The notes beneath the pieces are model-generated. The model saw only the letters and a program-made list of their open reading frames with translations. It was not told the DNA's origin and did no database searches. Below, in pieces: positions 13,843 to 31,834 of a DNA stretch of 33,186 bases. The stretch covers positions 1 through 33,186 of the forward strand of contig CANRCI010000003.1 in assembly GCA_947629075.1 (NCBI GenBank), read 5' to 3'. Position numbers and translations under genes: made by a program. The stretch's first letter is position 1, and each line of letters starts with the position of its first letter. This stretch comes from an uncultured Bacilli bacterium. GTDB lineage: Bacteria > Bacillota_I > Bacilli_A > RF39 > UBA660.

Positions 13843-16002
13843 TTACCAGGAGCTTCCTCCTCCACCACCGGAACCGCCACCGGAGAATCCACCGCCGGAA
13901 AATCCGCCACTAGATCCGCTGAATGATGTAAAGTCATGAGAAGAATTATCACTTGAAGGAGCAACTGCCATAACTGTCTGAACACTACTCATTGTATCGT
14001 TCATAAATCTGTCAAATCGATAATAACTAAACGGATCGTTAGAATAGTACCAATCTGGTGGCTCAATGGCAATACCTTCAAATTTCTTAACCCATTTATT
14101 AGATATTCCTAAAGCATACGTATATGGCAATATATCGTAAAAATATGTTGGATTTTCTGCCACTAATGCTTCTAGGCGATCTTTCTCAGCCGTCTCTAAA
14201 AAGTTGGCAAAACCGCGTACTCTACCAAGTATCCTACTTCCATATTCAGTTCGCTGTGGCATAATACCTGCAAAAATTCCTATAATTAGCATTGAAATAA
14301 TACCAACTACACTGACAATAAAGTACTGACCACCAATGTATTGATAAGCTAAATCAGATCCAAAGCTTCCCCACCTAATAACTAAGATTCCTAAAAGAAG
14401 GTAATACCAAAATTTACTAAACTTGGTTGACAAATTATTACTTGCACTAATTATAAACATAAAAATTAGTAACAGAGTTGTCATATACAACATGCTTGGG
14501 AAACTATCCGGTAAATAAAATATGGCTTGTCGTGCTAAGGTTATAAAGAATATCACAACCATGAATATGAAAGCTAATGTTCTTTTAGAACTAGACTTTT
14601 TATTGTATATTTTATACTTCATATCAGTTTTTTCATTAGATTCAATAATATTAATCGTCTGATAAAAATTATATTTTAATTCATCCAAAACGATTGATTC
14701 ACCAACTTCTCTACTGACAAACAAATTGTCAAAAAAAGTCTTTTCGTTTTTGTTATCACCATCGTATTCTTTAAGTTTGGTAAAACGTATCTGTAAACTT
14801 TCGTTATTTTTTATTTTCTTCAATTCTTTTTTATTAAATTCATAACCAACTGGTTTATCTAACATTTCCCAGAATTTTTTTATATCTTTTAAATTTCTTG
14901 TTTGATAAGCTGCATCAAAAATGCTTTCTTCCTTGATTTTTTGGTCTAACTTATTCAACTCTTCTTTTACTACCTTTGAATATTCGGCAGTCATGACCGG
15001 ATGATCTTCATCGATACCAGAATCATCTATTTTAATATATCCTTTATCAGCTAAATATATAAGTAATGATAAAACTGCTGACGTGTTAGCACTGTTGTGA
15101 TAGATATAGCCAACATCCAAACTGTTAAGTCCCTCTGGTGGATAAAATTCAACTGTTTCTACTATATCGGAATCACGTCCATGTTTATGCCATAGATAAA
15201 CGGTAAAACCAGCTAGTGCAATCGAAATGATTATTGAAAGATAATCGAAAATTCCTAAATGAAATCCAGCTCCGACAAAGTAACCATCTTCTAATTCTAC
15301 TCTAGCTGTTAGAGCGTAACCTGGCAATAAAATTCCATTATATTTACCAGTTACGACTAAATCATTCACTTCATAAACGACATTCTGGGTATTGATCGTA
15401 CCATAACTACCATAAGAAAATCCTAGCTTTGATTCATCGAAGTCTTTGGGAAACGCAATCTCAAAAGTAACATTACCTATTGGAACATCCCACTCATCTC
15501 CGATGATATTATAATAAAATTCGTCGATATCACTCAAAGGATCATTACCAATATTATAAGTATAACTTATTTCATAATTCTTTAGACCAGTTATTGTCTT
15601 ATTGGCATTTCCAATCTGTAAAGTTAGATAGTCATCTGCAAAAGATTTTGTACTTTTTTCATTTACTCGAACGTTGGTAATTCTTGCACGATTGGAATTT
15701 TCCACTGTGGATAACCTCTCGACATTATTTGAAAGTGGTATTGTTCTAATAATACCGTGTTTAGGTTCAAAAAAGTAAGCACTAATCTTTTCAGTAATGT
15801 CATAAGTATTATTTTCGTTTATTTTAATTTTTACGTCATATGCATCGATTACATATTCATATGAAAAATCATTATAAACTTCACTAGGCTTACTAGAACT
15901 AATCGATTTATCATCAACTGCCCAAACCCTATTTGGTAAAATAATTATTACTAATAATAACGCAAAAAGAAAAGAACAAGATTTTTTTAAAATTCTTTTC
16001 AT
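13843..16002 (-). CDS. DUF2207-family membrane protein
   Basis: Signal peptide, HGIIRTIP, YYNIIG..WDVPI, VEFYPPEG, a TM bundle, ILPYTYALG..KW and a Gly/Ser tail ending GGGGGSSW; lies downstream of lemA. Confidence 0.9.
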   Translation of the reverse strand: MKRILKKSCSFLFALLLVIIILPNRVWAVDDKSISSSKPSEVYNDFSYEYVIDAYDVKIKINENNTYDITEKISAYFFEPKHGIIRTIPLSNNVERLSTVENSNRARITNVRVNEKSTKSFADDYLTLQIGNANKTITGLKNYEISYTYNIGNDPLSDIDEFYYNIIGDEWDVPIGNVTFEIAFPKDFDESKLGFSYGSYGTINTQNVVYEVNDLVVTGKYNGILLPGYALTARVELEDGYFVGAGFHLGIFDYLSIIISIALAGFTVYLWHKHGRDSDIVETVEFYPPEGLNSLDVGYIYHNSANTSAVLSLLIYLADKGYIKIDDSGIDEDHPVMTAEYSKVVKEELNKLDQKIKEESIFDAAYQTRNLKDIKKFWEMLDKPVGYEFNKKELKKIKNNESLQIRFTKLKEYDGDNKNEKTFFDNLFVSREVGESIVLDELKYNFYQTINIIESNEKTDMKYKIYNKKSSSKRTLAFIFMVVIFFITLARQAIFYLPDSFPSMLYMTTLLLIFMFIISASNNLSTKFSKFWYYLLLGILVIRWGSFGSDLAYQYIGGQYFIVSVVGIISMLIIGIFAGIMPQRTEYGSRILGRVRGFANFLETAEKDRLEALVAENPTYFYDILPYTYALGISNKWVKKFEGIAIEPPDWYYSNDPFSYYRFDRFMNDTMSSVQTVMAVAPSSDNSSHDFTSFSGSSGGFSGGGFSGGGSGGGGGSSW

Positions 16003-16915: not shown

Positions 16916-18106
16916 TTACTTAATTAATAATAGTTTTTTGGTTGTTAAACCTACTAAACTGATTAAACTCATTATTGCCATAGCAATGTAAGCAACAATG
17001 CCATCTCCAGTTTGTGGATTTTCAACATTTTCATCATCTGAAGCTTGTGAATTATCAACAGTTGTATCATCTGAAGTATCTTGGTTATTTAGTTCAGCTT
17101 CCATTTTTTCAGCTTCAGCTTTAGTCATAACAGCGTTGTTTGGACCAACTACTAGATTACCTAGATATGCTTCAGCAGGTTTAGTACCTGTAAAGACTGC
17201 TCCTGCTTTGATTTGAATCTCATCACTAGGATTTTCTTCATTCTCGTAAGCTAGAACTGGGTTTTCATTAGTAGCATTAATTTTAGCACCAGAACTGATT
17301 ACAGCTTTTCCTGTTCCTTTAGTATAACCAGGAGTTTTGTTATCGACGATAACTGCTACACCACCTGGAAATTGTACATCGGCATCACCGATTTGAACGG
17401 GATCAGTTCCTGTTGTTGTAATAGTACCACCAGCTAAATTAACTTCTCCAGCACGAGAAACTATACCAACATAACCAGTAAGATTACCATTAGTGATATT
17501 CAATGTACCAGATTGTGGCATATAAACAACTGCTCCACCAGTAGATTCAATTGTACCACCAGAAATGTTGATAGTTGAATTACCAGAATGTGCACCATTA
17601 CCACTAATAGCGTTTTGAGTAGCTGTGATAGTACCACCTTCAAAATTTAATTTTCCATTGTCACCCCAAAGAGCAACACCAGTATCAGCAATGAAGGTAC
17701 CACCCTTAACTGTAAGAGTACCATTTCCATCTATTGCTAGAGCTTGAGTTATTGAACTTCCCTTACCTGAATAAACAACTTTACCTGTACCTACGCTATC
17801 CTTGATTACTAAAGATCCACCATTGCTAACGGTGATAACAGTATTCCCTTCCTCGTTAGTACGAGTAATTGAACCACCATTTAAATCTAGTGTGATGTTC
17901 TTATTATTTACATCAATCATAGCAGTAGTAGTAATTTTGGCATCTTTTGCTAGCGTAATAGTCTCACAACTATTGATTGCTGCAGTTAGCTCTGTATCAT
18001 TTGCAATGCCAGTACACTTTGGTTCATCAGCATATACATTTGGCATAAAAGCCATACTAACAACAAAAGCAGATACTATACCAAGTAGTAAATTTTTCTT
18101 TTTCAT
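16916..18106 (-). CDS. Secreted, cell-wall-anchored beta-helix/adhesin-like protein with an NPQTG sorting signal
   Basis: Signal peptide ending VYA-D; Gly/Thr/Asn-rich motifs ITLDLNG, ISGGTI, GTLNITNG; acidic linker; then ENPQTGD, a hydrophobic helix and KK. ATG 18106 follows AAAGGA. Confidence 0.8.
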   Translation of the reverse strand: MKKKNLLLGIVSAFVVSMAFMPNVYADEPKCTGIANDTELTAAINSCETITLAKDAKITTTAMIDVNNKNITLDLNGGSITRTNEEGNTVITVSNGGSLVIKDSVGTGKVVYSGKGSSITQALAIDGNGTLTVKGGTFIADTGVALWGDNGKLNFEGGTITATQNAISGNGAHSGNSTINISGGTIESTGGAVVYMPQSGTLNITNGNLTGYVGIVSRAGEVNLAGGTITTTGTDPVQIGDADVQFPGGVAVIVDNKTPGYTKGTGKAVISSGAKINATNENPVLAYENEENPSDEIQIKAGAVFTGTKPAEAYLGNLVVGPNNAVMTKAEAEKMEAELNNQDTSDDTTVDNSQASDDENVENPQTGDGIVAYIAMAIMSLISLVGLTTKKLLLIK

Positions 18107-18259
18107 ATTGTATTTGTTCCTTTCCATTTTATAAATTTGTATTATTAAGATTTTTTCCTCAATGATATTATATATATCAAGTGTTTTAAGGCTTTTTTTA
18201 TTTTACGCCATTTACTTACTGAAATACCAAATCGCAAAATCATCTCAATAATTGCCATC

Positions 18260-18406: not shown

Positions 18407-19474
18407 TTAAATTTTTTCATATGTTGCTATATACTTACCTGAAAGAACGCCTGAACCTAACTCATTTGAAACAGCTTTTCTTGAAGATATTAATTCCCAA
18501 CCTACAAATCTATAACCATATTTAGGGGCTGGAGCAGTTACTGTATAGCTAGTAATATCAGCACGTCTACCTATTAATAAAGTAGAAACTTGAGCACCTG
18601 TTCTAGAATTAGTAAATCCTTCACATTTGTTTAAATCACATTCTACTTCAACAAACCAAATGTGTCCACTATCACCACAGTAACTTTCTGTACAATGGAT
18701 TGGCAAACTTTTCTTTGTACTATAGAAATGGAATTCAACTTTTTTCTTTTCAGCTTCTTTTTTTATTTCTTCTTCTTGTTCTTTAGTCTTTTTGTTTATT
18801 TTATCTAAAAGTTCTGGATAATCATTAAGATCATACTTAGGTCCTTGTTCTTCTGATTCTTCTTTTGGCTTTGTAGTTGTATTATTTTTAGTACTAGCTT
18901 GTGATTTATTACTAGTTACATTTGAACTAGATTTAGTAGATTCAGATTCTTTGGTCGATTTAGTAGAAACTGTTTGATTTTGTTTATTTTCATTTTCTTT
19001 TACTTCAGCAGCTTTTTCTTCAATATTTTGTTTATTTTGTTCTTTTTCTTCTACTATTTTACTGGCTGTCTCTACTTTCTTTTCAGCTGATTTTTTTGCT
19101 TCTTCAGCTTTCTCGATTTTTGTTGTTGTAGCATCTATTTTTGCTTGTGCTATTTTTCTTTCTTCAGGTGTTTTGGCTTTCTTTAGTTCAAGGATAGCTT
19201 CTTCTTTCTCTTTAGATGCTTTACTAATCGTTTCTTCTGCTTTTGTTACTTCTTGTTCAGCCTTTTCTTTATCTTCTTTAGCTTCTTTTAATTCTTCTTC
19301 AGCTTGTTCCATTTCTTGATTTATATTTTTTGAATAAGAACTCTTTTGAGTAACTTTAGCAGTATTAATTAGTTGATTATCATACTTAATGTAATTTTTG
19401 GCTAAAACACCTGCACCAGTTACCGCACCAATTGATAGAAAACCTATCATCGTCTTAATTAAAATTTTATTCAT
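18407..19474 (-). CDS. Exported or membrane-anchored coiled-coil protein with a small C-terminal beta domain (InlB B-repeat-like motif)
   Basis: Hydrophobic N-terminus, E/K/A coiled coil, S/T/K linker, and a four-Cys C-terminal domain ending APAPKYGYRFVGWE...YIATYEKI. RBS AAGGAGG. Confidence 0.7.
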   Translation of the reverse strand: MNKILIKTMIGFLSIGAVTGAGVLAKNYIKYDNQLINTAKVTQKSSYSKNINQEMEQAEEELKEAKEDKEKAEQEVTKAEETISKASKEKEEAILELKKAKTPEERKIAQAKIDATTTKIEKAEEAKKSAEKKVETASKIVEEKEQNKQNIEEKAAEVKENENKQNQTVSTKSTKESESTKSSSNVTSNKSQASTKNNTTTKPKEESEEQGPKYDLNDYPELLDKINKKTKEQEEEIKKEAEKKKVEFHFYSTKKSLPIHCTESYCGDSGHIWFVEVECDLNKCEGFTNSRTGAQVSTLLIGRRADITSYTVTAPAPKYGYRFVGWELISSRKAVSNELGSGVLSGKYIATYEKI

Positions 19475-19874: not shown

Positions 19875-20483
19875 TTAAATTATATCTAATTCTTCTGTTT
19901 CTTTGATGTCATCATGTATCTCTAAATTCTCTGTATATTTAGAATGATAAAGGTCAGTATCATCTTCATTTTCAACGATTTTTTCAAACTTTGGTAGATC
20001 ATCCTTACTAGCAAGTCCAAAGTAATCTAAAAATTCACTAGTCGTTTTATAGAGAATTGGTCTTCCTGGTAAATCACTTCGTCCACTCTCTTTTACTAAA
20101 CCCTTGGCAACTAGTTTTTTAATCATCTCACGAGATGACACTCCTCTTATCTCATCGACCATAAGTCTCGTCACTGGTTCGTTGTAAGCGATAATGGCAA
20201 GTGTCTCTAAAGCAGCTTGACTCAAGGTATTAGACTCTGGCGTTTCAATTAATTTCTGATAAAAATCTTTATGTTCTTTTTTAGTAGTAAGTTTAAATCT
20301 ATCACCTAAAAAATTAATTCTTATTCCATAGCTATCACTTTCATAACGTTCTTTCAGTGCTATTACTAATTGTTTAGCTTGATCGTTATCTATTTCTAAG
20401 ATCTCTTCTATTTGGTTGATAGTTAATCCTTCATCACCAACGACAAATAAAAGACCTTCTAATACTCCTTCTAAATTCATCAT
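19875..20483 (-). CDS. scpB: SMC-Scp complex subunit ScpB
   Basis: Motifs LEGLLFVVGDEGL, LSQAALETLAIIAYNEPVTR, GRPILYKTT..FLDYFGL. Confidence 0.97.
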   Translation of the reverse strand: MMNLEGVLEGLLFVVGDEGLTINQIEEILEIDNDQAKQLVIALKERYESDSYGIRINFLGDRFKLTTKKEHKDFYQKLIETPESNTLSQAALETLAIIAYNEPVTRLMVDEIRGVSSREMIKKLVAKGLVKESGRSDLPGRPILYKTTSEFLDYFGLASKDDLPKFEKIVENEDDTDLYHSKYTENLEIHDDIKETEELDII

Positions 20484-21193
20484 ATCGCCTCACAAACTAT
20501 ATCTTCAAAATTATTATCTTGATGAATGCTTATTTCTCTAGTTTTAGCCATTTCTAAAATAGCCAAAAAAGTTACAACTAAATATTCTCTTGTCATAACA
20601 TCAAAAAGTTCAAAGAATCTAACACGTTTCTTACTACTTATCAATTTCTTTATCGATTTTCTTCTCTCTTCGACAGTTATCTCACGCTTAGTTATTTTAG
20701 TATTTAATGGCCTATTCTGTTCTTGTCTCTTTAAGAATTTTTTAAAAGCATCAACTAAGTCATCTAATGAGACATCGGATGTATTGACAAATTTAATGTC
20801 CGGTTCTAACTCTTTTAGATTTTCTGGAGATTTAGTATAAATTAACATTCTCTCTTTTTCAAGTGATTTGAAATCTTCAGTCAAGTCTTTATAATGTTGA
20901 TATTCGATTAATCGGTTTACCAATTGTTCTCGAGGATCTTCTTCTGATTCCTCTTCTTCTTCATGTCTTGGAAGTAACATTTTAGATTTTAATTCGATCA
21001 ATTCACTGGCCATTACTAAGTATGAACTAGCTATATCTAAATTCATTTCTTTCATAGCGTTTATATAATCTAAGTATTGATTGGTTATCACTTCTATCTT
21101 TAAATCAAAGATATCCATTTTCGATTCTTTAATTAGATGAAGTAATAAATCTAATGGGCCCTCAAACTGGTCGATTTTTAATGTGTATTCCAT
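20480..21193 (-). CDS. scpA: Segregation/condensation protein ScpA (kleisin)
   Basis: Motifs FEGPLDLLLHLI, YLVMASELIELKSKMLLP, VVTFLAILEM. Confidence 0.97.
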   Translation of the reverse strand: MEYTLKIDQFEGPLDLLLHLIKESKMDIFDLKIEVITNQYLDYINAMKEMNLDIASSYLVMASELIELKSKMLLPRHEEEEESEEDPREQLVNRLIEYQHYKDLTEDFKSLEKERMLIYTKSPENLKELEPDIKFVNTSDVSLDDLVDAFKKFLKRQEQNRPLNTKITKREITVEERRKSIKKLISSKKRVRFFELFDVMTREYLVVTFLAILEMAKTREISIHQDNNFEDIVCEAI

Positions 21194-21285: not shown

Positions 21286-21309
21286 AAAAAAAGAAGCCAG
21301 ATAGCTTCT
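21286..21309 (-). terminator. Terminator after the spoVA operon
   Basis: AGAAGC/GCTTCT stem plus a T-tract on the minus strand. Confidence 0.55.
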
Positions 21310-21658
21310 AATTTTTTGGTCTAAATATAAGTGTAAAGATAAATGTAAAGAGAATAGCTGCCGTTATTCCACTTGCTGTTAGGTCGAACATTCCCATCAT
21401 GAGACCGATAAAACCGAACTCGTTAGCTTTAGCTAACGCCCCATGAATTAGGGAATGACCAAAACTTGTAATCGGTACTAAAGCTCCACCACCTACATAA
21501 GCGATAATGGTATCATACCAACTAAAGCAATCGAGAAAAGCTCCTAAAACGACAAACATACTAGTAATATGACCAGGAGTTAATTTGGTATTATCTAAAA
21601 TTATTTGACCCAACAGACATAGTGCACCGCTGAATAAAAATGAATATAGATATATCAC
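21308..21658 (-). CDS. spoVAE: Stage V sporulation protein AE (SpoVAEb-type)
   Basis: Motifs CLLGQIILD.TKLTPGH, GGGALVPITSFGHSL, AGITAAILF...FRPK. GTG start overlaps the spoVAD stop. Confidence 0.93.
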   Translation of the reverse strand: MIYLYSFLFSGALCLLGQIILDNTKLTPGHITSMFVVLGAFLDCFSWYDTIIAYVGGGALVPITSFGHSLIHGALAKANEFGFIGLMMGMFDLTASGITAAILFTFIFTLIFRPKN

Positions 21659-22650
21659 TATACCACCTCCAAACTAATCGCATGGGCAATTGAGTTTATC
21701 GGTTCGTGTTGGTAGACAAAAGTTGGGGAAAATAGTGCTCCGGTTGCTACAATCAATACTCTTTTTAACTGATGTCTTTCCATCAGAGGAAATATGTGTG
21801 AATAATTTACTAAAGCAGTACAAGCTGGACCACTTCCACCAGCCATTACTTCTTCTTGCATTTCTAAATCGTAAAGCATTGTACCAGTATCATCATAATT
21901 ATTACTGATATCTATTTTGTATTCACTGTGCAAGTAATCGATAAGTATTTCTTTACCATATCTTCCTAAATCACCAGTTAAAATCAAATCGTAATAAGAA
22001 GCATCTCTCTTTTTATCTTTTAAGTGTTGATAAATTGTATCTCCTGCTGCTACTGCCATAACAGCTCCCATATTAAAGGGATCAGTTTGATTCATATCCA
22101 TAACTTTACCAATTGTTGACGATTCAACTTTAATTTTACTTTTAGTCGAAGTTAGATAACAACTCGCCCCACCCGTTGCGGTAAAAGTAGCTGTCTTAGG
22201 TTTAGGAGCTCCATATTCAGTAGGATTTCTAAACTGTTTTTCACTAGACATGTTGTGAGAAGAAACTGACACGATACTATTTTTTATCTTACCACTATCT
22301 ATTAGAGATGATGCTAAAATCAATCCCTCAACACTAGTTGCACAAGCTGCATATATTCCTAGAAAAGGAAATTCATACTTTAATGCTGCATAACTAGATG
22401 AAGTAATCTGATTTAGAAGATCACCTGCTATAAACATATCAATGTTTTTCTTATCTTTATTGATTTTGTTTAATAAGATATCAATACTATCCTGCATAAG
22501 TTTAACTTCCGCTTTTTCCCAAGTCTTTTCACCATTATATAAATCTGTATAATAACGATCAAACTTACTACCTAGTGGTCCATCTTTTTCATATGGTCCT
22601 ACGACAGTTGAATAATTATTTATATACACATTATTATAATTAAAAGTCAT
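21658..22650 (-). CDS. spoVAD: Stage V sporulation protein AD (DPA-binding, thiolase-like fold)
   Basis: Motifs GPLG..FD, TWEKAE, AGDLLNQ, EKQFRNPTEYG, NMGAVMA.AA, YDLILTGDLG, GGSG.AC. Confidence 0.96.
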   Translation of the reverse strand: MTFNYNNVYINNYSTVVGPYEKDGPLGSKFDRYYTDLYNGEKTWEKAEVKLMQDSIDILLNKINKDKKNIDMFIAGDLLNQITSSSYAALKYEFPFLGIYAACATSVEGLILASSLIDSGKIKNSIVSVSSHNMSSEKQFRNPTEYGAPKPKTATFTATGGASCYLTSTKSKIKVESSTIGKVMDMNQTDPFNMGAVMAVAAGDTIYQHLKDKKRDASYYDLILTGDLGRYGKEILIDYLHSEYKIDISNNYDDTGTMLYDLEMQEEVMAGGSGPACTALVNYSHIFPLMERHQLKRVLIVATGALFSPTFVYQHEPINSIAHAISLEVV

Positions 22651-23093
22651 TATACCCCTCCTAATAACAAGTATCTAATCATCCCGAAGAACCATGCCGA
22701 AACTACACCATAGAGGATAACTGATCCAGCTAATTTAAATATATTACTTCCAATACCATATATTGGTCCTTCTTTTCTATATTCCATACCACTACTCATC
22801 ATCGAATGAGCGAATCCCGTAATAGGAATAATGAATCCACATTTACCGAATGATACCCATTTATCAAAGAAACCTAAAGCTGTAAACAGGCACGATACAA
22901 ATATTAGAGTTACACTCATAAAGACAGTTGCGTCTTTAGTTGATATATCGAATATATAAGTGTAAAACTCAATTAGGAGTTGTCCTAAAACGCCAATCAT
23001 TCCACCGATCACAAATGCTATAAAAGCATTTTTTAATCTGGGTTCTGTAGGTTTATGGCGATCAACAATTTTTTGATATTCTCTTTTTTCCAT
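22650..23093 (-). CDS. spoVAC: Stage V sporulation protein AC
   Basis: Motifs AFVIGG.IG..GQ, IPITGFAHSM.S..MEYRKEG, FKLAGSVILYG. Confidence 0.95.
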   Translation of the reverse strand: MEKREYQKIVDRHKPTEPRLKNAFIAFVIGGMIGVLGQLLIEFYTYIFDISTKDATVFMSVTLIFVSCLFTALGFFDKWVSFGKCGFIIPITGFAHSMMSSGMEYRKEGPIYGIGSNIFKLAGSVILYGVVSAWFFGMIRYLLLGGV

Positions 23094-23137: not shown

Positions 23138-23797
23138 CTACGATAATAATTTATTTTTTATTTTGTTTTTTATTTTAGTTTCCCGTCTCGATACTTGAAC
23201 TTGATTGATATTTAATTTTTTACTGACTTCACTCTGACTTAAATCATCGTAATAGCGATATTTGATCAAATCTTGTTCTTCTTGTGGTAATGAATCAATT
23301 GCATCTTTTAACATTATTACTTCTTCGTCAAATCCTTTTTCTTCATATTTAATCGAGTCGTATAAATTCATCGTCTTATTTTCATCATCACTCAATTCGT
23401 AATCGAGACTTTTAACATAATCACTAGCTTTAATGGCATCATCAACTTCTTCAATACTTTTACCTAGAGCAAGAGCAATTTCCTCATTAGTTGGTTCACT
23501 CAAAAATTCCTGTTGCAGTTTCTCTTTCATCCTGCGAATATCTCTTCCCAGTTTCAAAGTATCTTTCCCAATCTTTAAAAGTCGGTTTTCCCGAACGTAT
23601 TTTAAGGCTTCACCCATTATGTACAATCTAGCAAAAGTAGAAAACTTGGTATTATATTCTTCTTTATAATTTTCTTTAGCTTTTAAAAGAGCCATGAGCC
23701 CTACTTGTACTAAATCTTCATAATCATTATTGTATGCATATTTATAGACAATACTTGATACATATTTTCGATAACTCTCTATTTCTTCGTTAGTCAT
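23138..23797 (-). CDS. sigF: Forespore sigma factor SigF (N-terminally short)
   Basis: Motifs EDLVQVG..ALLKA, KFSTFA..YIMGE, EPT.EEIA, RYY.DLSQSEV...L.INQVQVSR (QVQ as in SigF). Located between the spoIIAA-like gene and spoVAC; RBS AGGAGG. Confidence 0.85.
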   Translation of the reverse strand: MTNEEIESYRKYVSSIVYKYAYNNDYEDLVQVGLMALLKAKENYKEEYNTKFSTFARLYIMGEALKYVRENRLLKIGKDTLKLGRDIRRMKEKLQQEFLSEPTNEEIALALGKSIEEVDDAIKASDYVKSLDYELSDDENKTMNLYDSIKYEEKGFDEEVIMLKDAIDSLPQEEQDLIKYRYYDDLSQSEVSKKLNINQVQVSRRETKIKNKIKNKLLS

Positions 23798-23805
23798 TTT
23801 CCCTC

Positions 23806-24000
23806 CTATATCAAATAGCTAAAATAATTACTATCTAATCCACTACAACAATTTCTATCGATAAATATTACATTGATACCACCAATTCTTACTACTTCTG
23901 TTAACGACTTTCTAATCTCTAAAAGATTATTCTTATTTACTCTTCCCTCTATCCTTAAAAACATTACCCCTTTCTTATACTCATATTCTAAATTTATCAT
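23806..24000 (-). CDS. spoIIAA: Truncated SpoIIAA-like (N-terminal half of a STAS domain)
   Basis: LRIEGRVN aligns with IRLTGELD and IFIDRNCCSGLDS with IVLNLEDLSFMDS; stops 7 aa after the DS. Start is ATG 24000 or GTG 24009. May be a decaying pseudogene. Confidence 0.65.
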   Translation of the reverse strand: MINLEYEYKKGVMFLRIEGRVNKNNLLEIRKSLTEVVRIGGINVIFIDRNCCSGLDSNYFSYLI

Positions 24001-24048
24001 TACAACCACGTCCCTAATATAAAATGTTAAAAAACTCTTTTATAGTTT

Positions 24049-24081
24049 TTCGACAAAAGAAATTAATTTTTTCTTTCGACA
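24049..24081 (-). promoter_or_regulatory. Tandem Spo0A boxes
   Basis: TTTGTCGAAA occurs twice on the minus strand (TTCGACA at 24049-24055 and 24075-24081), upstream of the spoIIA operon, a canonical Spo0A target. Confidence 0.8.
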
Positions 24082-24140
24082 AAGTGTCTACCTATATTAT
24101 TACAATCGATAATTAAATTTACTCAAAAAAAAGAAATAAA

Positions 24141-26408
24141 TTATTTTTTATTTCTCTTTTTATTATTTCGTTTTTTACCGTTAGTTTTTTTCTTACCCGT
24201 CTTCTTTTTCTCAATTGTAAGTTCGCGGTAACTAGCAAAGATAATTAAGAATAGTCCTATTACTAATAAGAAAATAGATATTGGGGTTTTTTCTAACCAA
24301 TTATATATATTATATAGAATGTTAACTATTACTAAAGCAATACCTAGTAGGAATAGTTTGTCGTATTTTTTGTTTACAAAACCGAAGAAAGCTACTCCAA
24401 TCGATAGAACAATGGCATAAATAGATAAGTAAAGACTTTGATCAAACATGACAATTAATACGGAAATTAGTGAGCCTGCTACAGCAATATATTGACGATA
24501 GTCTTTGTTCTTGACAAATTTATTAATGACAAATGTTAGATATAAAACTAAAACGGAAAGGAAAAAAGTATTCCATATTTCTGAGTTATAAGCATCGATT
24601 AATGAATAGATAGGTATGGCGATTGCAACTAAAGTTATGTTTTTCTTAGTCTTATCGTCATCGTGATAAAAGACTGATATCATATATAACAATAGAGCAA
24701 TGACATTAGCAACGATATAATTATCATTAGTACTCTCAATGAAGTGTTGATCGATAGCATAACTTCCTAAATAAATCGTAAACAGTAAAATAGCAAAAGC
24801 CACATTAGTAAGTTTAGGATCATCTTTTTTATATATTCCTACTACGTAATAATAACCGATAATAGTTAATATAACTAATAGAATTGCATAAATATTTCCA
24901 AAAGTCGCTACTTTTATGACTGATATCAAAGCTAGAACCAAACTTATATATTTATACATATTGATAAGTTTTTTATTTTTAAATACGCCATAAAGAATAA
25001 CGCTGATTAAGAATAAGATACCGATTAACAATTCATAAAGATCAAATGCAAAATAATTATTGAAGAATAGTAAGAATCCTAAAACGAACATAAATACTTT
25101 AACAGGATGGATATAAGCTTCAAAAGCATACTCATCTAAAGATTCAAAACTCATACATGCCAGACACATAAACATCGATACTACTGAGATAATAATTGGT
25201 AACCAAGTAGGATTGTGTAGTGATAATATAAAAGCAAATAAAGTTAGTATGTCAGCTGTTATAAGTGATGACGTTATCAGTAATTTTCGCTTGTACAATA
25301 GTGCTACTAGATATACGAAAACAGCATAAACCGTTATTCCTAAAGCCCAAAGTTCAATCGAAAAGTTTAACGTTAAAAACAATGGTATGACAAACAAGAA
25401 AGACGCTAGTGGTGCAAAATAATTTAAATCACTATCTTCATTCTTTTTAACCCAACTGTATATCTCATAAACGAATAAAATGGTAAGTATTAATACAGAT
25501 AAATAGTTGTCAAAAAAGAATTGAAAAGTAACAAAACATAACATTGAAATAAGAGTTATTATCTTAGAGAAAGCATAGAGAATTTTACTTCTAAACTTCT
25601 CACTGTAATAAGTAAATTTACCAAGTAAAATAAACAATGGTGCAATGGTAAACAACGTATCTTCAACACTCAAAGCTAAAAAGCGATCCATTTGGAAAAT
25701 AGCAAGTAGTAATAATGTGTACAATATGTATAAAATGTTATCTTTTTCAAAATTGCAATAAGATATGAATGTTAAAAAAGCTGCTAAAAGATAGAAAGAA
25801 ACGTAATAAAAACTGCGACCAGCTCCTAAAAGAGAAAACCAATTGCCAAATATTCCGGCATATCCAGCTGATAGAAAAGCAAACAAGATAAAGATCATTC
25901 CTAATGTCCAAGATACATAAGCACTAGATTTAATTCCTACTCTATTTTTACTAAATCGATATATCGCAAACAGAATAATACTACCTAAAATAAAAATAAA
26001 TATTCGCGATAAATAGTTAACTCTAGCCCAAGACGATGTAGCAAATAAAAACCCAGCTACACTTATTAAAACAATTCCTAATTTTAAGAACATGTCCAAC
26101 TTCTTTATTTCAGGATCTACTTGTTCTTTTTTTACTTTCTTTTTCTTTTTTTCAATATCCGATACAGCCCAAACAGTTAAAATTGATCCCACAATATTAA
26201 AGAGCAACAATACAATAGCAACGCCATACAAAACATTTTCTTTTTTTATCAAAGTCGCATAATTTTCAGAACTAAAATATAATAAAAAGATTGAAACTCC
26301 CGATAAAACAATAGATGGAATAGATACTAAACCAAACAACCCGACTGAAATGAACAAAGCTAAGATGTTACTAATCAAAACAACATCTAGCTTGGACTTT
26401 ACGCTCAC
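24141..26408 (-). CDS. Large polytopic membrane protein (about 20 or more TM segments) of unknown function
   Basis: Continuous hydrophobic segments, FLFATSSW motif and a Lys-rich C-tail. GTG 26408 follows GAGGTG (ORF-track start 26417). Confidence 0.75.
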   Translation of the reverse strand: MSVKSKLDVVLISNILALFISVGLFGLVSIPSIVLSGVSIFLLYFSSENYATLIKKENVLYGVAIVLLLFNIVGSILTVWAVSDIEKKKKKVKKEQVDPEIKKLDMFLKLGIVLISVAGFLFATSSWARVNYLSRIFIFILGSIILFAIYRFSKNRVGIKSSAYVSWTLGMIFILFAFLSAGYAGIFGNWFSLLGAGRSFYYVSFYLLAAFLTFISYCNFEKDNILYILYTLLLLAIFQMDRFLALSVEDTLFTIAPLFILLGKFTYYSEKFRSKILYAFSKIITLISMLCFVTFQFFFDNYLSVLILTILFVYEIYSWVKKNEDSDLNYFAPLASFLFVIPLFLTLNFSIELWALGITVYAVFVYLVALLYKRKLLITSSLITADILTLFAFILSLHNPTWLPIIISVVSMFMCLACMSFESLDEYAFEAYIHPVKVFMFVLGFLLFFNNYFAFDLYELLIGILFLISVILYGVFKNKKLINMYKYISLVLALISVIKVATFGNIYAILLVILTIIGYYYVVGIYKKDDPKLTNVAFAILLFTIYLGSYAIDQHFIESTNDNYIVANVIALLLYMISVFYHDDDKTKKNITLVAIAIPIYSLIDAYNSEIWNTFFLSVLVLYLTFVINKFVKNKDYRQYIAVAGSLISVLIVMFDQSLYLSIYAIVLSIGVAFFGFVNKKYDKLFLLGIALVIVNILYNIYNWLEKTPISIFLLVIGLFLIIFASYRELTIEKKKTGKKKTNGKKRNNKKRNKK

Positions 26409-26465
26409 TATACTCACCTCTATTATAATTTTAACATAAATGAGACAAATAAAAAAGATACTAAA

Positions 26466-27608
26466 TTAAAATGGATATAAAGTATCTTTTAACACTCTTA
26501 AAAACAGATTAAAAATATTTATTTTATTTACATCTTCTCTGGTGACAATGTTTATTTCATCCACTACTTCGTCATTTAATTTAATATACATTTTACCGAC
26601 AACATCACCTTTTTTTAATGGCAATTTGACTTCATTAATTTTTTTGTCCAAATCGTATTTTAAACTTTGTTCACTTATTTTTTTTAAAATGGTCGCATCT
26701 TTTTCAAGATAGAGATTGGTCTTTCTGGTATCACCTTTTTCGAATTGAATGGTATCGATTACTTCATCTTTCGATTTTAATAGATCAATTTGGTAATTAT
26801 TAAAACCATAATCTAAAAGAGCCATTGTCTCATTGTTTCGTACCTTTCCTTCTTTTTCTCCTAAAACAATGGCGATCAACCTAGTATCATTTCTTTTAGC
26901 AGTTACAGCCATACAATAACCAGCAGCGTCGGTAAATCCTGTCTTTAAGCCATCAGCTCCAGCATAAAATCTTATCAACTTATTGGTATTGACTAGCCAA
27001 AATTTGTTATTGGAATCTACTCTTAAGTAATCTTCATAAATAGAAGTATATTTTAGAACCGTTTCATGTTTTAACAATTCTCTAGCAATTACTGCCATAT
27101 CATAAGCAGTCGAATAATGTCCTTCTTCATCAAGACCAGTTGCATTTTTAAATACCGTATCTTTAAGTCCCAAATCCTTTACTTTTTTATTCATCATTTC
27201 GACGAACTTCTCTTCAGTTCCAGCAATTCTTTCAGCCATTGCTACTGTTGCATCATTGGCACTAGCCATAACAATACCTTTAAAAAGTTCTTCAACCGTC
27301 ATAACTTCACCAGTCTCTAAGTATATTTGACTACCACCCATACCAGATGCATTTTTAGACGCCGTTACTTTATCGCTCCAAGACAATTCACCAGCTTCGA
27401 TATATTCCAGAATTATTATTTGACCAACCATCTTAGTCATCGAAGCCACTGCCAATTTTTCATTGCGATTTTTTTCGTAAATTATTTTACCAGTTGACGC
27501 CTCCATAAGAAGAGAACTTTTAGCATTAGGAGTTGGATCTTCACTAGCGTAAACCCTTGGAATTAAAAGAAATAACGCCATCATTGCAATCAAAAACTTC
27601 TTTTTCAT
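26466..27608 (-). CDS. dacF: Serine D-Ala-D-Ala carboxypeptidase (S11), DacF-type
   Basis: SxxK (ASMTK), SxN (SAN) and KTG motifs; MGGSQIYL, FWLVNTNKLIRFY. Syntenic between pdp and spoIIA. ATG 27608 follows GAGGTG. Confidence 0.88.
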   Translation of the reverse strand: MKKKFLIAMMALFLLIPRVYASEDPTPNAKSSLLMEASTGKIIYEKNRNEKLAVASMTKMVGQIIILEYIEAGELSWSDKVTASKNASGMGGSQIYLETGEVMTVEELFKGIVMASANDATVAMAERIAGTEEKFVEMMNKKVKDLGLKDTVFKNATGLDEEGHYSTAYDMAVIARELLKHETVLKYTSIYEDYLRVDSNNKFWLVNTNKLIRFYAGADGLKTGFTDAAGYCMAVTAKRNDTRLIAIVLGEKEGKVRNNETMALLDYGFNNYQIDLLKSKDEVIDTIQFEKGDTRKTNLYLEKDATILKKISEQSLKYDLDKKINEVKLPLKKGDVVGKMYIKLNDEVVDEINIVTREDVNKINIFNLFLRVLKDTLYPF

Positions 27609-27691
27609 CAATTCACCTCTCATTAATAAATATGTCAAAATATGTTTATATATTATCTTTTTTTGAGTATAATTATCTTGAGGTAGAGATA

Positions 27692-28549
27692 ATGAAAAAA
27701 TTTATATTGAGCATATTTTGTATCCTAGTTATTGTATTCGGAGGATTGCTTTCTTACAAGATGTTTTTTACTGATAATGAAGAAAAGAGTACCAATAACC
27801 CAGACAATAATAGTAAAATTGAAAAAAGTAGTGATGAATGGGAAAAAATAGATATATATAAAGAAGAAAATAGAGATAGGTACATAAATTATAAAGATAA
27901 AAATAAAGAACTATCGAATGAACGAGTTGTGCTTCTCGTAAACATTGGGATTGATCAAGATTTTTATACGAACGTCAAACCTGCTTTGAGAAAAGATACT
28001 AATTTAGTCCTTACTAATAAGTTTTATTCTTTAGAAAAAGATTACGTACCGAAGAACTTGGAAACTATCGATTCAAAATATCAAGTTGGTGGAAAAATGC
28101 TTACCCACGATGCGAGAGTTGCCTTTGAAAAGATGGCTCAAGCAGCCCGCGATGATGGATACAACATAAGAGCAGTTTCGACATATCGCAGTTACAACTA
28201 TCAGAATAATTTGTACAACAACTATGTCAATCGTGATGGTAAAGAACAAGCTGATACCTATTCTGCCCGTCCGGGATATTCCGAACATCAAACAGGACTA
28301 GCTGCCGACATCGATAACAATAACACTAGTTACACTTCATTTGGACTTACTAAAGAGTTTACCTGGATGAAAGAAAATGCTTATAAGTACGGATTTATTT
28401 TGCGATATACATCTGAAAATGAATACATCACTGGTTATAAGAACGAACCATGGCATTATCGCTATGTCGGTGTCGATGTTGCAACTAAAATGATGAAAGA
28501 AAACATCTCGAGTTATGAAGAGTATTATTTCAAGTATTTGGACAAATAA
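27692..28549 (+). CDS. M15B Zn D,D-carboxypeptidase (VanY-like), membrane-anchored
   Basis: Motifs S.YRSY..Q, YSARPGYSEHQTGLAAD, KYGFILRY, EPWHYRYVG; N-terminal TM. ATG 27692 follows GAGG. Confidence 0.9.
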   Translation: MKKFILSIFCILVIVFGGLLSYKMFFTDNEEKSTNNPDNNSKIEKSSDEWEKIDIYKEENRDRYINYKDKNKELSNERVVLLVNIGIDQDFYTNVKPALRKDTNLVLTNKFYSLEKDYVPKNLETIDSKYQVGGKMLTHDARVAFEKMAQAARDDGYNIRAVSTYRSYNYQNNLYNNYVNRDGKEQADTYSARPGYSEHQTGLAADIDNNNTSYTSFGLTKEFTWMKENAYKYGFILRYTSENEYITGYKNEPWHYRYVGVDVATKMMKENISSYEEYYFKYLDK

Positions 28550-28581
28550 AAAGAATTTAGCCAAAAACTAAATTCTTTTTT
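28549..28581. terminator. Bidirectional intrinsic terminator
   Basis: AAAAGAATTTAG-N7-CTAAATTCTTTT between convergent genes. Confidence 0.75.
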
Positions 28582-29807
28582 TATTCAATAGTAAATGCTT
28601 CTAGTGGATCGTCATATTCTTCTTTAGCTCCGATATACAAAGTACAGATGACGTCTCCCTCTTTTACTTCATCACCAACTAATTTATTTAGATAAACTCC
28701 AACGGTAGGATCGATTTCATCTTCTAGTTTAGTTCGCCCTGCTCCTAATTGGTTAGCAATTGTACCGATTTTTAAAGCATCGATGGCAGTTATTACTCCA
28801 CCTTTAGGACTCTTTATTTCTATTGTCTTGTCACTTACTTTTAACTGTTCTATATCGCCATCTTGTTCTTTTACAAATTCCAAGAATTTCTGATATGCCT
28901 TACCACTGGACATTGCTTCTCCCGCTTCTTTAATAGCTTCTTCTTCAGAAATGTTTTTAGCCATCATTAAGATATCTACGATAATTTTAGAACATAACTT
29001 AGTTAGATTATTTCCTTCTTTTCCTTGTAGAACATTGATTGCTTCTAAAACTTCAAGACTATTTCCAACACTATTTCCGAGTGGTGTATCCATATCACTA
29101 ATCTCAGCTCTTACTTCTTTTTTATAACGATAACCGATTCTTTCAACGATATCCTTAAATCGCAATGCTTCATCGTGACTTTTAATAAATGCACCCTTTC
29201 CCAATTTAATGTCGATAAATATCTTATCAGCTCCACTAGCTATTTTTTTACTCATGACACTGGACGCTATTAAAGGGATTGAATCAACTGTTCCCGTTAC
29301 ATCTCTTAAGGCATAAACTTTTTTATCAAGTGGTGTTAACTCATCACTACTCTCACAGATACTAAATCCAACACGATTAGTTTTATCGATAAATTCATCT
29401 AGTGTTAGATTAGTTTTAAATCCAGGAATACTTTCCAATTTATCAATTGTACCACCAGTTACTCCTAGACCACGGCCACTCATTTTAGCAACTTTTAAAC
29501 CACAACTAGCAAGAACAGGAGCTACCACTAAAGTCGTCTTATCCCCAATACCACCAGTTGAATGTTTTTCAACCTTAATGCCATCAATCTTACTCAAATC
29601 CAATTTAGTCCCACTGTCAATAAAAGTATCAGTCAAATGGAATATTTCCATATCTGTCATATCTTTTAAACATATAGCCATAAGTAAACTACTCATTTGA
29701 TAATCTGGTATTTCACCATTTAAGTAACCATTAAAAAAGTATTTAATTTCGCTGCTCGTTAATTCTTGACCAGCTTTCTTTTTATTAATTATACTAACTG
29801 CATCCAT
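28581..29807 (-). CDS. pdp: Pyrimidine-nucleoside (thymidine) phosphorylase
   Basis: Motifs KHSTGGIGDK, KMSGRGLG.TGGTIDKLESIPG, YALRDVTGTVDSIPLIASSVMSKKIA, LGAGR. Confidence 0.95.
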   Translation of the reverse strand: MDAVSIINKKKAGQELTSSEIKYFFNGYLNGEIPDYQMSSLLMAICLKDMTDMEIFHLTDTFIDSGTKLDLSKIDGIKVEKHSTGGIGDKTTLVVAPVLASCGLKVAKMSGRGLGVTGGTIDKLESIPGFKTNLTLDEFIDKTNRVGFSICESSDELTPLDKKVYALRDVTGTVDSIPLIASSVMSKKIASGADKIFIDIKLGKGAFIKSHDEALRFKDIVERIGYRYKKEVRAEISDMDTPLGNSVGNSLEVLEAINVLQGKEGNNLTKLCSKIIVDILMMAKNISEEEAIKEAGEAMSSGKAYQKFLEFVKEQDGDIEQLKVSDKTIEIKSPKGGVITAIDALKIGTIANQLGAGRTKLEDEIDPTVGVYLNKLVGDEVKEGDVICTLYIGAKEEYDDPLEAFTIE

Positions 29808-30465: not shown

Positions 30466-30747
30466 CTACATTTCTGGTAGATATATCTCTTCTAAAAGCG
30501 ATAAATTAGAACTGATCATATCGATTAAATTTTCGCCATATCTTTCTTTTAAACCATTATATCGCTCGACAAAATTAGGATATTCAACAGAAAACAGTAC
30601 TAGACAATTCTCTATAAGTTCTTCGATAAAAGAACAGTTTTCATCCAATAAGAAAGCAATTATTTTTTTTATATTTTCAACATCTAGGCTAGATATAAAA
30701 CTTTCTTCGTATTTACTTAATAGTTCTTCGACTATCTGCTCGGCCAT
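30466..30747 (-). CDS. Small acidic helical hypothetical protein
   Basis: 93-96 aa ORF overlapping the end of the upstream repeat gene; ATG 30747 follows AAAGGA; a hairpin follows the stop. Confidence 0.65.
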   Translation of the reverse strand: MAEQIVEELLSKYEESFISSLDVENIKKIIAFLLDENCSFIEELIENCLVLFSVEYPNFVERYNGLKERYGENLIDMISSNLSLLEEIYLPEM

Positions 30748-31834
30748 TTTTATCATTTCCTTTTTTATATTTTACCAATTTTTTTAAATCAATACCGTAT
30801 TGTGCTTTCAATCCCTCATTTGAAGTATTGATTATCGGATTTATTTTCCTATCTTTAAAGAAAGGAATTTGATTATCATCCATATATTCAAATAAAGCTC
30901 TTCTCTCATTTGCGTTGAACTGGATAGCAGTTGGGGTTACAAAGTTATCTATACCATACTCTTTGTAGAGTTCAAAAATATTAACTATCGTTTCTAGTTT
31001 TACTCTAAAAATGATTGAGGTAAACAGATGACTGTAACCATCTGCCCAGTATGATAGATTTATTTTCTTACGAATACTTTCAGGTTTGTCTTTCCAAATA
31101 CCTGGTTTAAGAAGGTGCTGGTATTGTTTGTTTTTCCACTCGGGCATCGATAAAATGTTAAATACTTTTTCTTTACTATTACCCCAGATACTACCAGTAA
31201 GTAGATTTTTAAACACCGGATCGTCCCAAACTGATTGTGCTTTTAATATTTCATCCTTTTCCCAACTTTTCTTCATATGCAGTATTTCTACTACATCGCG
31301 GTAGTTACTTTTCCAAATATTTTTTGTCAATAACGGTCTAAATTTAGGATCTTGCCATTCTGGTAGGGATAAAATTTTTTTTACTTCTTCATAACTACAA
31401 CGCCAGATATTAGAACTCAATACCTCTTCAAAATCAGAATCTTCCCATTCTTTCATATGAAGGATTCCATTGACGTCTTCATAATTACTATTCCAAATAT
31501 TGGGTGTCAAAAGCTTTTTAAAACGAAACTCATCCCACTCCTTCATATCCACAATTTTAGAAATATTTTCATAATTGCTATTCCAGATAGTCGGAGTTAA
31601 TAAATTTTTAAACTTTGCATCTTTTAACTTTGCAATCGATAAAACATTTTTTATCTCTTCGTAACTACTGTTCCATATATTACTACTAAGTAAAGCGTTA
31701 AAAGGTTCCTCTTGCAATTCGGACATTGCCATTATTTTAGTTATTTCATCGATACTTCTTTCAAAAAAACGATCATTGATTAAATCGGTTCGGCCATTCA
31801 AAGCTCTAATTTTTTCATCTCTCAACTGATCCAT
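30713..31834 (-). CDS. Trp-rich 30-aa tandem repeat protein
   Basis: Consensus LLTxxIWxSxYExxxxILxMxEWxDxxFxx, with Trp at residues 54, 84, 114, 144, 174, 217 and 247. Confidence 0.85.
   Translation of the reverse strand: MDQLRDEKIRALNGRTDLINDRFFERSIDEITKIMAMSELQEEPFNALLSSNIWNSSYEEIKNVLSIAKLKDAKFKNLLTPTIWNSNYENISKIVDMKEWDEFRFKKLLTPNIWNSNYEDVNGILHMKEWEDSDFEEVLSSNIWRCSYEEVKKILSLPEWQDPKFRPLLTKNIWKSNYRDVVEILHMKKSWEKDEILKAQSVWDDPVFKNLLTGSIWGNSKEKVFNILSMPEWKNKQYQHLLKPGIWKDKPESIRKKINLSYWADGYSHLFTSIIFRVKLETIVNIFELYKEYGIDNFVTPTAIQFNANERRALFEYMDDNQIPFFKDRKINPIINTSNEGLKAQYGIDLKKLVKYKKGNDKNGRADSRRTIK
31004..31783 (-). repeat. Degenerate 90-nt coding tandem repeats (7 clear and about 2 degenerate units)
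   Basis: Recurring TTCRTAAYTRCT(A/G)TTCCANATA-like motif at 90-nt spacing on the plus strand, with one 39-nt insertion. Confidence 0.85.

Follow-up and report, generated by a model that had tools for sequence, protein, structure and literature searches.

A spoIIA-like locus with half a spoIIAA and no spoIIAB

The DNA analysed here (the window) is one whole contig of 33,186 nucleotides (nt; CANRCI010000003.1, assembly GCA_947629075.1) from an uncultured gut bacterium of the order RF39, family UBA660, whose genome (G000; 1.18 megabases (Mb) in 100 contigs, 92.6% complete, 30.9% G+C) is the only one in its genus. Its minus strand carries a spoIIA-like locus in which the SpoIIAA-type STAS gene is cut to a stump and the kinase and anti-sigma factor gene spoIIAB is missing. 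In the order of transcription, a dacF-like gene and a 758-amino-acid (aa) open reading frame (ORF) are followed by a 140-nt spacer with two Spo0A-box-like heptamers, the STAS stump, sigF and spoVAC/AD/AE (Table 1). The stump ends with TAG at 23808-23806, from which 8 nt, GAGGGAAA, lead to the sigF ATG at 23797, leaving no room for spoIIAB. The locus resembles the spoIIAA-spoIIAB-sigF locus of B. subtilis and Clostridia: it begins with a STAS gene and ends with sigF, has Spo0A-box-like sites upstream, follows a dacF-like gene and precedes spoVA genes; we take the position of the dacF-like gene to be that of dacF, ahead of spoIIA, in B. subtilis. It differs from the switch of those bacteria in having no SpoIIAB, no SpoIIE and no phospho-acceptor serine. 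In the textbook account, endospore development begins when SpoIIE, SpoIIAA and SpoIIAB switch SigF on in a cell-specific manner. A reading of the DNA made without database searches (the sequence-only reading) had described a 64-67 aa N-terminal STAS half stopping 7 residues after a 'DS' pair, sigF 8 nt downstream behind a strong ribosome site with no space for spoIIAB, an intact sigF and two perfect 0A boxes. All of these hold, both boxes being exact TGTCGAA heptamers, and profile searches of the genome and its relatives bear out the further statement that the partner switch is missing.

The protein database entry of the stump is the 64-aa form. Against the Pfam STAS profile (PF01740) it scores 17.6 bits (E 0.0033, profile positions 3-55 of 106), below the cut-off of 22.6, and against a profile of the relatives' STAS proteins 62 bits (E 1.9e-17, positions 2-65 of 113); because of these two matches we regard it as a genuine N-terminal STAS half. 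With the SpoIIAA model TIGR02886 it reaches 13.9 bits, short of the cut-off of 114.75, as does a full-length relative (L013, 34.6 bits). The 3' part of the gene, about 46 codons, is lost, and with it C80 and E104, which are among the five family positions that hardly vary. By alignment and structure model alike the chain ends inside helix 2; the model contains strands at residues 6-12, 15-23 and 47-51 and helices at 26-43 and 60-66 only, an incomplete fold without helix 4. We placed Ser58 by aligning the family profile to the solved B. subtilis SpoIIAA, where it stands two residues past the conserved Asp. The stump reads D-S-N-Y, so that its Ser corresponds to Ser57 and its Asn to Ser58, and this alignment shows that phosphorylation at the canonical site would be impossible. 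The sequence-only reading took the 'D-S' phospho-site to be kept: the two letters are there, and the acceptor is not. Searches found no C-terminal STAS fragment elsewhere in the genome and no other STAS gene, the stump being the single match of the family profile (profile positions 2-74). Neither of two ways to a longer product applies: a stump-SigF fusion by read-through of the TAG is ruled out, as the 11 nt from stop to ATG put the two in different frames, and genetic code 4 would not extend the stump, as its stop is TAG.

The SpoIIAB-SpoIIE switch is absent throughout the order

In the window's genome, the best scores for SpoIIAB with TIGR01925 (36.8 bits) fall inside three histidine-kinase-sized frames of 354-472 aa, PF13581 peaks at 20.1 bits with nothing over the cut-off, and our own profile of 48 SpoIIAB sequences, run over all six frames with filters off, returned only the same three frames. 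The sequence-only reading would have fallen had spoIIAB and a full spoIIAA existed elsewhere in this genome; neither was found there. The SpoIIE PP2C domain was likewise not detected in the genome, whose one PP2C_2 phosphatase, a 247-aa frame, is presumably the usual PrpC-type enzyme. Among relatives, no SpoIIAB exceeded the cut-off in 41 genomes of family f1 and the order or in the 25 genomes of the family that were sampled, and none reached E <= 1e-15 in 121 genomes of the order, each at least 90% complete. The SpoIIE domain PF07228 was found in none of 61 family genomes, nor in the sister-family genome G025. As a control, four of 15 genomes from other families of the class gave SpoIIAB at 152-190 bits; in all four a frame of 740-775 aa contains a SpoIIE domain, and a SpoIIAA with the FMDSSG motif is followed by SpoIIAB and sigF; one of these genomes is of only 0.9 Mb.

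The same division was seen in 80 loci from named records: 44 have the order STAS-SpoIIAB-SigF (Bacillus, Paenibacillus, Clostridium, Lachnospiraceae and others) and 36 are without SpoIIAB, the latter titled uncultured Bacilli, Tenericutes, Mollicutes, Mycoplasmatota or Erysipelotrichaceae, from rabbit, mouse, human and ruminant guts. SpoIIAA is by definition bound by SpoIIAB and dephosphorylated by SpoIIE, and neither partner was found in the window's genome or in the family and order samples. The lack of SpoIIAB and SpoIIE is order-wide, not strain-level decay. Because the switch is absent order-wide, the control of SigF must differ from that in Bacillus and Clostridium.

Relatives retain a serine-less SpoIIAA beside sigF

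Of 29 loci from the family's other genera, 28 have a STAS ORF of 103-128 aa directly before sigF, abutting or overlapping it, so that the canonical spoIIAB slot is closed; the exceptions noted are L032, without STAS, and L031, where 285 nt separate STAS from sigF. The stump, too, has the place expected of spoIIAA, directly upstream of sigF in the operon. A full operon in the relatives was another finding that would have told against the sequence-only reading; they lack spoIIAB, yet carry a whole spoIIAA. The family STAS profile is present in 52 of 61 genomes, and six of the nine negatives are also without a SigF-level match. Here too the locus is like spoIIA of B. subtilis and Clostridia: the profile matches solved SpoIIAA structures (1AUZ, 1TH8 and 1TID; E about 8e-19, positions 2-107), its best solved matches being the SpoIIAA proteins of B. 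subtilis and G. stearothermophilus; RsbS is matched more weakly (6JHK, E 9e-6; 6QCM, E 0.0012).

Among 48 distinct clade sequences, the conserved Asp is found in 39 and Gly at the Gly59 position in 31, and the Ser58 column holds Ser or Thr in 6 only (K in 11, Y in 10, N in 7). The ratio of nonsynonymous to synonymous substitution rates (dN/dS, Nei-Gojobori) is 0.09-0.34 for eight distinct full-length STAS pairs and 0.11-0.34 for SigF, at dS of 0.7-1.4. C80 and E104 are nearly invariant across 51 STAS sequences, indicating that the C-terminal half matters where the protein is whole. Since purifying selection persists without the kinase, the phosphatase and the acceptor serine, these data point to some phosphorylation-independent role for the retained SpoIIAA-type STAS protein. 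RsbS/RsbR-type scaffolds are similar in that they have a STAS fold without the SpoIIAA-type serine cycle; such modules act with a GHKL kinase, RsbT, and no small GHKL protein was found encoded in the window's genome. For full-length STAS and SigF from the closest genus (L013), complex prediction scored 0.00 and 0.18 (alignments A3 and A4) where the mark is 0.32, and weighs neither way on binding.

The gene has also been eroded or lost elsewhere in the order. It encodes 95 aa in G008 and has a diverged C-terminus in G019, and it is missing before sigF in G017, in G021 and in about 10 of the 36 clade loci. A second short STAS-like family (72-82 aa; profile positions 2-70) adjoins yqfC/yabP-like and yqfD-like genes in four family genomes (L134, G001:C43; L135, G075:C3; L136, G054:C25; L139, G014:C14); this paralog was searched for in the window's genome and not found.

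SigF, its promoter region and the remaining sporulation circuit

The sigma factor of the window is over the cut-off for PF04542, PF04539 and PF04545. Its best NCBIfam matches, both below cut-off, are the SigB/F/G subfamily (154.8 bits) and the SigF equivalog TIGR02885 (146 bits, cut-off 321.45). It occupies the position between spoIIA and spoVA, has homologs in the same place in the relatives, and is distinct from SigG (contigs C17/C91), SigE (C45) and SigK (C1), which are separate genes in the same genome. The sigG gene itself is split over two contig ends (G000:C17:3-350 and G000:C91:2731-2931), an assembly break inside the gene. SigF ORFs have a median length of 215 aa in the SpoIIAB-less clade (n = 35) and of 251.5 aa beside SpoIIAB (n = 44); compared with B. 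subtilis and Clostridia, those of the clade are about 35 aa shorter at the N-terminus, starting near position 31 of Bacillus SigF with roughly the first 30 residues missing (L013-L041, L054-L133). Of 85 columns conserved in 43 SpoIIAB-bearing SigFs, 32 are different in 63 SigFs without SpoIIAB; most of these lie within reference positions 41-115, with E149 and K240 in addition. This comparison is confounded by lineage, and the columns were not used as a sign of released constraint.

The heptamer TGTCGAA agrees with what we take to be the Spo0A-box consensus. It is not enriched in the window as a whole, with 6 occurrences against 3.28 expected and 14 of 100 shuffles reaching 6. Its placement recurs, however: of 29 family loci, 24 have a TGNCGAA-type box 47-64 nt upstream of the STAS start, and 6 have a second one at -81 to -96. 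Spo0A is encoded in the genome (281.8 bits, cut-off 200), so that the region has both marks of a Spo0A-activated promoter, the boxes and the regulator, and Spo0A binding is predicted. SigE, SigK and a SigH-like sigma factor are encoded as well, together with a SpoIIR-like protein (128.7 bits) and a SpoIIGA-like protein (110.5 bits) adjoining sigE, both below cut-off. The components of the SigF-SpoIIR-SpoIIGA-SigE chain are therefore represented here, as in B. subtilis and Clostridia. Six of 61 family genomes (G007, G020, G061, G063, G065 and G073; 0.7-1.1 Mb) have neither a SigF-level match nor STAS, a pattern suggesting that sporulation has been lost independently within the family.

The stump as a probable vestige and the proposed control of SigF

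The 64-aa form is known from one contig only. A word-indexed protein search returned the window's own protein alone, and when 1.84 billion representative proteins were searched exhaustively, the stump matched only itself below E 1e-10, alongside six weak matches of 79-112 aa. Among these six is a sub-clade of proteins of 98-100, 81 and 79 aa that are well conserved over residues 1-60. When STAS identity is set against SigF identity, its N-terminal half has the largest negative residual (mean -0.125, rank 1 of 29). The ribosome site of the stump, GGGACGTGG, is weakened relative to that of most relatives, GAGGTGAT. Its dN/dS is 0.42-0.61 against the nearest relatives and 0.27 between those relatives, values that come from 64 codons with dS near saturation. 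Since the form occurs on one contig, has the most diverged N-terminal half and a weakened ribosome site, and the relatives have full-length proteins, decay fits better than repurposing: the mini-SpoIIAA is a one-genome truncation and more likely a mark of decay. The sequence-only reading had thought the protein perhaps repurposed, drawing attention to its CC pair, and proposed to measure its conservation and dN/dS. That idea is not supported, and the CC pair is not conserved in the relatives.

Taken together, the gene content leads us to consider it probable that SigF activity is governed mainly by Spo0A~P-driven synthesis, with no anti-sigma factor to restrain it, the stump being a vestige that carries a leader and a ribosome site. 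The locus is the dacF-spoIIA-spoVA region of a gut member of the class Bacilli with a reduced genome. The ancestor of the order lost SpoIIAB, the kinase and anti-sigma factor, and SpoIIE, the phosphatase, the acceptor serine of SpoIIAA going alongside. The SpoIIAA-type STAS gene was kept next to sigF, downstream of a conserved promoter region with Spo0A boxes, and the purifying selection on it in most genera means that it has some phosphorylation-independent job. In the window's genome, loss of the 3' codons of STAS has left the stump and a good ribosome site for sigF. In the scheme we propose, the stump most likely survives as a vestige because it carries the promoter-proximal leader and that ribosome site, this genome being among several lineages of the order in which the gene was eroded or lost independently. 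Restriction of SigF to the forespore, if there is any, would come from outside the SpoIIE/SpoIIAA/SpoIIAB switch; the relay from SigF through SpoIIR and SpoIIGA to SigE is still encoded.

Several observations weigh against this scheme. The frame of the stump is open, its dN/dS is below 1, and the family's N-terminal residues G14, F17, R19 and G22 (67-aa numbering) are kept. Its first rank in divergence does not make it an outlier, because L027, L019 and L018 come close, with residuals of -0.120 to -0.100. In the nearest sub-clade, short forms of 79-82 aa occur repeatedly and have a well conserved stretch over residues 1-60. No independent contig bridges the deletion junction (23802-23870), at a word depth of 2-4x per run. 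B. subtilis is harmed by losing SpoIIAB, and control of SigF by synthesis alone is something we infer from the genes present.

A large gut order that keeps Spo0A, all four sporulation sigma factors, the SigE relay and a STAS gene, without kinase, phosphatase or phospho-serine, offers a test made by nature of how much of the SigF switch is needed, to which the window adds that even the remaining STAS gene can be halved. What is worth following is the order-wide, serine-less SpoIIAA under selection beside a shortened SigF.

Alternative explanations

The stump might instead be a working minimal SpoIIAA, in which the N-terminal sheet and helix 1 suffice and the C-terminal half is dispensable in the sub-clade. 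A non-canonical function does exist in the family, given that full-length STAS is under purifying selection without SpoIIAB and SpoIIE, and the nearest relatives become progressively shorter (98-101, 81 and 79 aa), with 22 invariant columns among four sequences of the short-form sub-clade in the first 60 residues. One metagenome locus, L147, has a 101-aa STAS before a SigF 50% identical to that of the window, and another, L148, a 79/82-aa STAS followed by a convergent gene instead of sigF; judged from these sequences, shortening is a trend within the sub-clade, with the window at its extreme. The paralog beside the yqfC/yqfD-like genes indicates that short forms can persist, and the stump retains the conserved KG..F.R..G motif in addition to its open frame and dN/dS below 1. 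Set against this are the near invariance of C80 and E104 in the missing half, the restriction of the 64-aa form to one contig with its divergence and weakened ribosome site, and the outright loss of the STAS gene in several lineages, and on balance we find a working minimal protein doubtful. A broader variant, in which the STAS protein was rewired across the order into a phosphorylation-independent regulator of SigF or another early step, replacing SpoIIAB and SpoIIE, with the N-terminal half sufficient in this sub-clade, strikes us as unlikely.

The whole sporulation pathway could be a decaying relic, in which case the missing switch needs no replacement. The six family genomes that appear to be without SigF and STAS would then mark sporulation loss still under way, and several sporulation proteins of the window's genome score under curated cut-offs. 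Spo0A, SigH-like, SigF, SigE, SigG, SigK, SpoIIGA-like, SpoIIR-like, SpoVAC/AD/AE and DacF-like proteins are nevertheless all encoded by open frames, SigF is under purifying selection in relatives, and the low scores agree with the rapid evolution that passages of PMC10868615 describe for these orders, making a relic distinctly improbable.

Because no independent contig spans the junction, there is a slight chance that the truncation is an artefact, introduced by assembly or sequencing in a metagenome bin of low coverage, with a true STAS protein of about 110 aa. Contigs from three runs of one rabbit-gut sample, probably the source of the genome, cover 23646-23801 and 23871-24153; they are short (151-525 nt, depth 2-4), none crosses the interval between, and the genus has a single genome. 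The same contigs lie on the stretch without differences, insertions, deletions or joints relative to the window, and at the join the stop is clean, the ribosome site is proper and the start of sigF lines up with that of the relatives; no collapse-promoting repeat was noticed, though no dedicated test was made. Finally, the possibility that SpoIIAB and SpoIIE are present and escaped detection, either because they lie in the 7% of the genome not assembled or because they have diverged too far for the profiles, draws on the 100-contig assembly with its split sigG and is scarcely credible given 0 of 121 order genomes with SpoIIAB and 0 of 61 with SpoIIE, profiles that find both in four class relatives, a closed spoIIAB slot and a vanished phospho-acceptor.

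Relation to earlier descriptions

A survey of cultured spore-formers (10.1101/2022.02.25.481979) states in part of its text that spoIIAA, spoIIAB and spoIIE are highly conserved in every firmicute lineage, and Turicibacter is recorded in a passage of PMC13492147 as having SpoIIAA and SpoIIAB. PMC10868615 (Microb Genom 2024) states that RF39 lacks spoIIAB and spoIIE; RF39 as described in passages there is like the genome studied here in lacking both genes and in having spoIIGA, a yqfD-like gene and spoVAD, whereas the descriptions given there of ML615J-28 and RFN20 do not fit the gene content found here. The sequence-only reading had proposed that SigF is confined by an undescribed mechanism: control unlike that of Bacillus and Clostridium is supported by the 121 genomes without SpoIIAB, but as an observation the gap is not new. 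In the main text of PMC10868615, spoIIAA, sigF and anti-sigma have no occurrence each, and our limited literature search found no paper analysing SpoIIAA or SigF in RF39. What lies beyond that main text are the selected STAS gene, the lost serine, the closed STAS-sigF junction and the truncation to 64 aa. The order-level gap is thus already published; new is the anatomy, that is, a retained, selected, serine-less SpoIIAA, a shortened SigF and conserved Spo0A boxes.

Feature coordinates and neighbouring genes

Table 1. Features of the spoIIA-like locus in the order of transcription (window coordinates)
Feature	Coordinates	Strand	Basis or remark
DacF-like D-Ala-D-Ala carboxypeptidase	26466..27638	(-)	PF00768 261.8 bits; PF07943
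758-aa polytopic membrane ORF without known family	24141..26417	(-)	Between the dacF-like gene and the STAS stump; no Pfam match
Distal Spo0A-box-like heptamer TGTCGAA	24075..24081	(-)	Exact match
Proximal Spo0A-box-like heptamer TGTCGAA	24049..24055	(-)	Exact match; 49-55 nt before ATG 24000
Truncated SpoIIAA-type STAS ORF	23806..24000	(-)	64 aa from ATG 24000, 67 aa from GTG 24009; TAG stop included
8-nt spacer	23798..23805	(-)	AGGAGGG ribosome site overlapping the TAG stop; read from sequence
SigF-like sporulation sigma factor, 219 aa	23138..23797	(-)	ATG 23797; Sigma70 r2, r3, r4
spoVAC	22650..23093	(-)	TIGR02838 160 bits (cut-off 164); PF03862
spoVAD	21658..22650	(-)	PF07451 407 bits; NF006160 414.8 bits (cut-off 402)
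spoVAE (SpoVAEB type)	21308..21658	(-)	TIGR02839 138.1 bits (cut-off 131.1)
Terminator-like hairpin and T run, 3' of spoVAE	21292..21309	(-)	Terminator scan

The terminator scan covered 3.1 kilobases and gave 3 terminator-like sites, with 0.8 expected. The 758-aa ORF upstream of the boxes was considered as a remnant of SpoIIE, which it does not resemble (BLASTP E 4.3 against the SpoIIE of G030), and as a conserved partner of the locus, a reading rejected since only 2 of 60 other family genomes have homologs, and these do not lie beside STAS or sigF; its atlas matches are unnamed clusters only. A homolog of this ORF (29% over 626 aa; L148:35-1933) precedes the 79/82-aa short STAS in metagenome locus L148.

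The neighbours at 19875-21193 (-), 27557-28549 (+), 28581-29807 (-) and 13843-16002 (-) are of ordinary kinds: scpB and scpA follow spoVAE immediately, and the others encode a VanY-type carboxypeptidase, a pyrimidine-nucleoside phosphorylase and a DUF2207 membrane protein. Three further ORFs of 355-403 aa, at 18407-19474, 16916-18127 and 30713-31834, are without a Pfam family. In many relatives, a Tyr/Asn/Lys-rich ORF of 314-365 aa lies just upstream of STAS-sigF (L018, L020, L024, L028, L029, L034-L036, L038, L065, L067 and L123), several of these with a hydrophobic, signal-like N-terminus.

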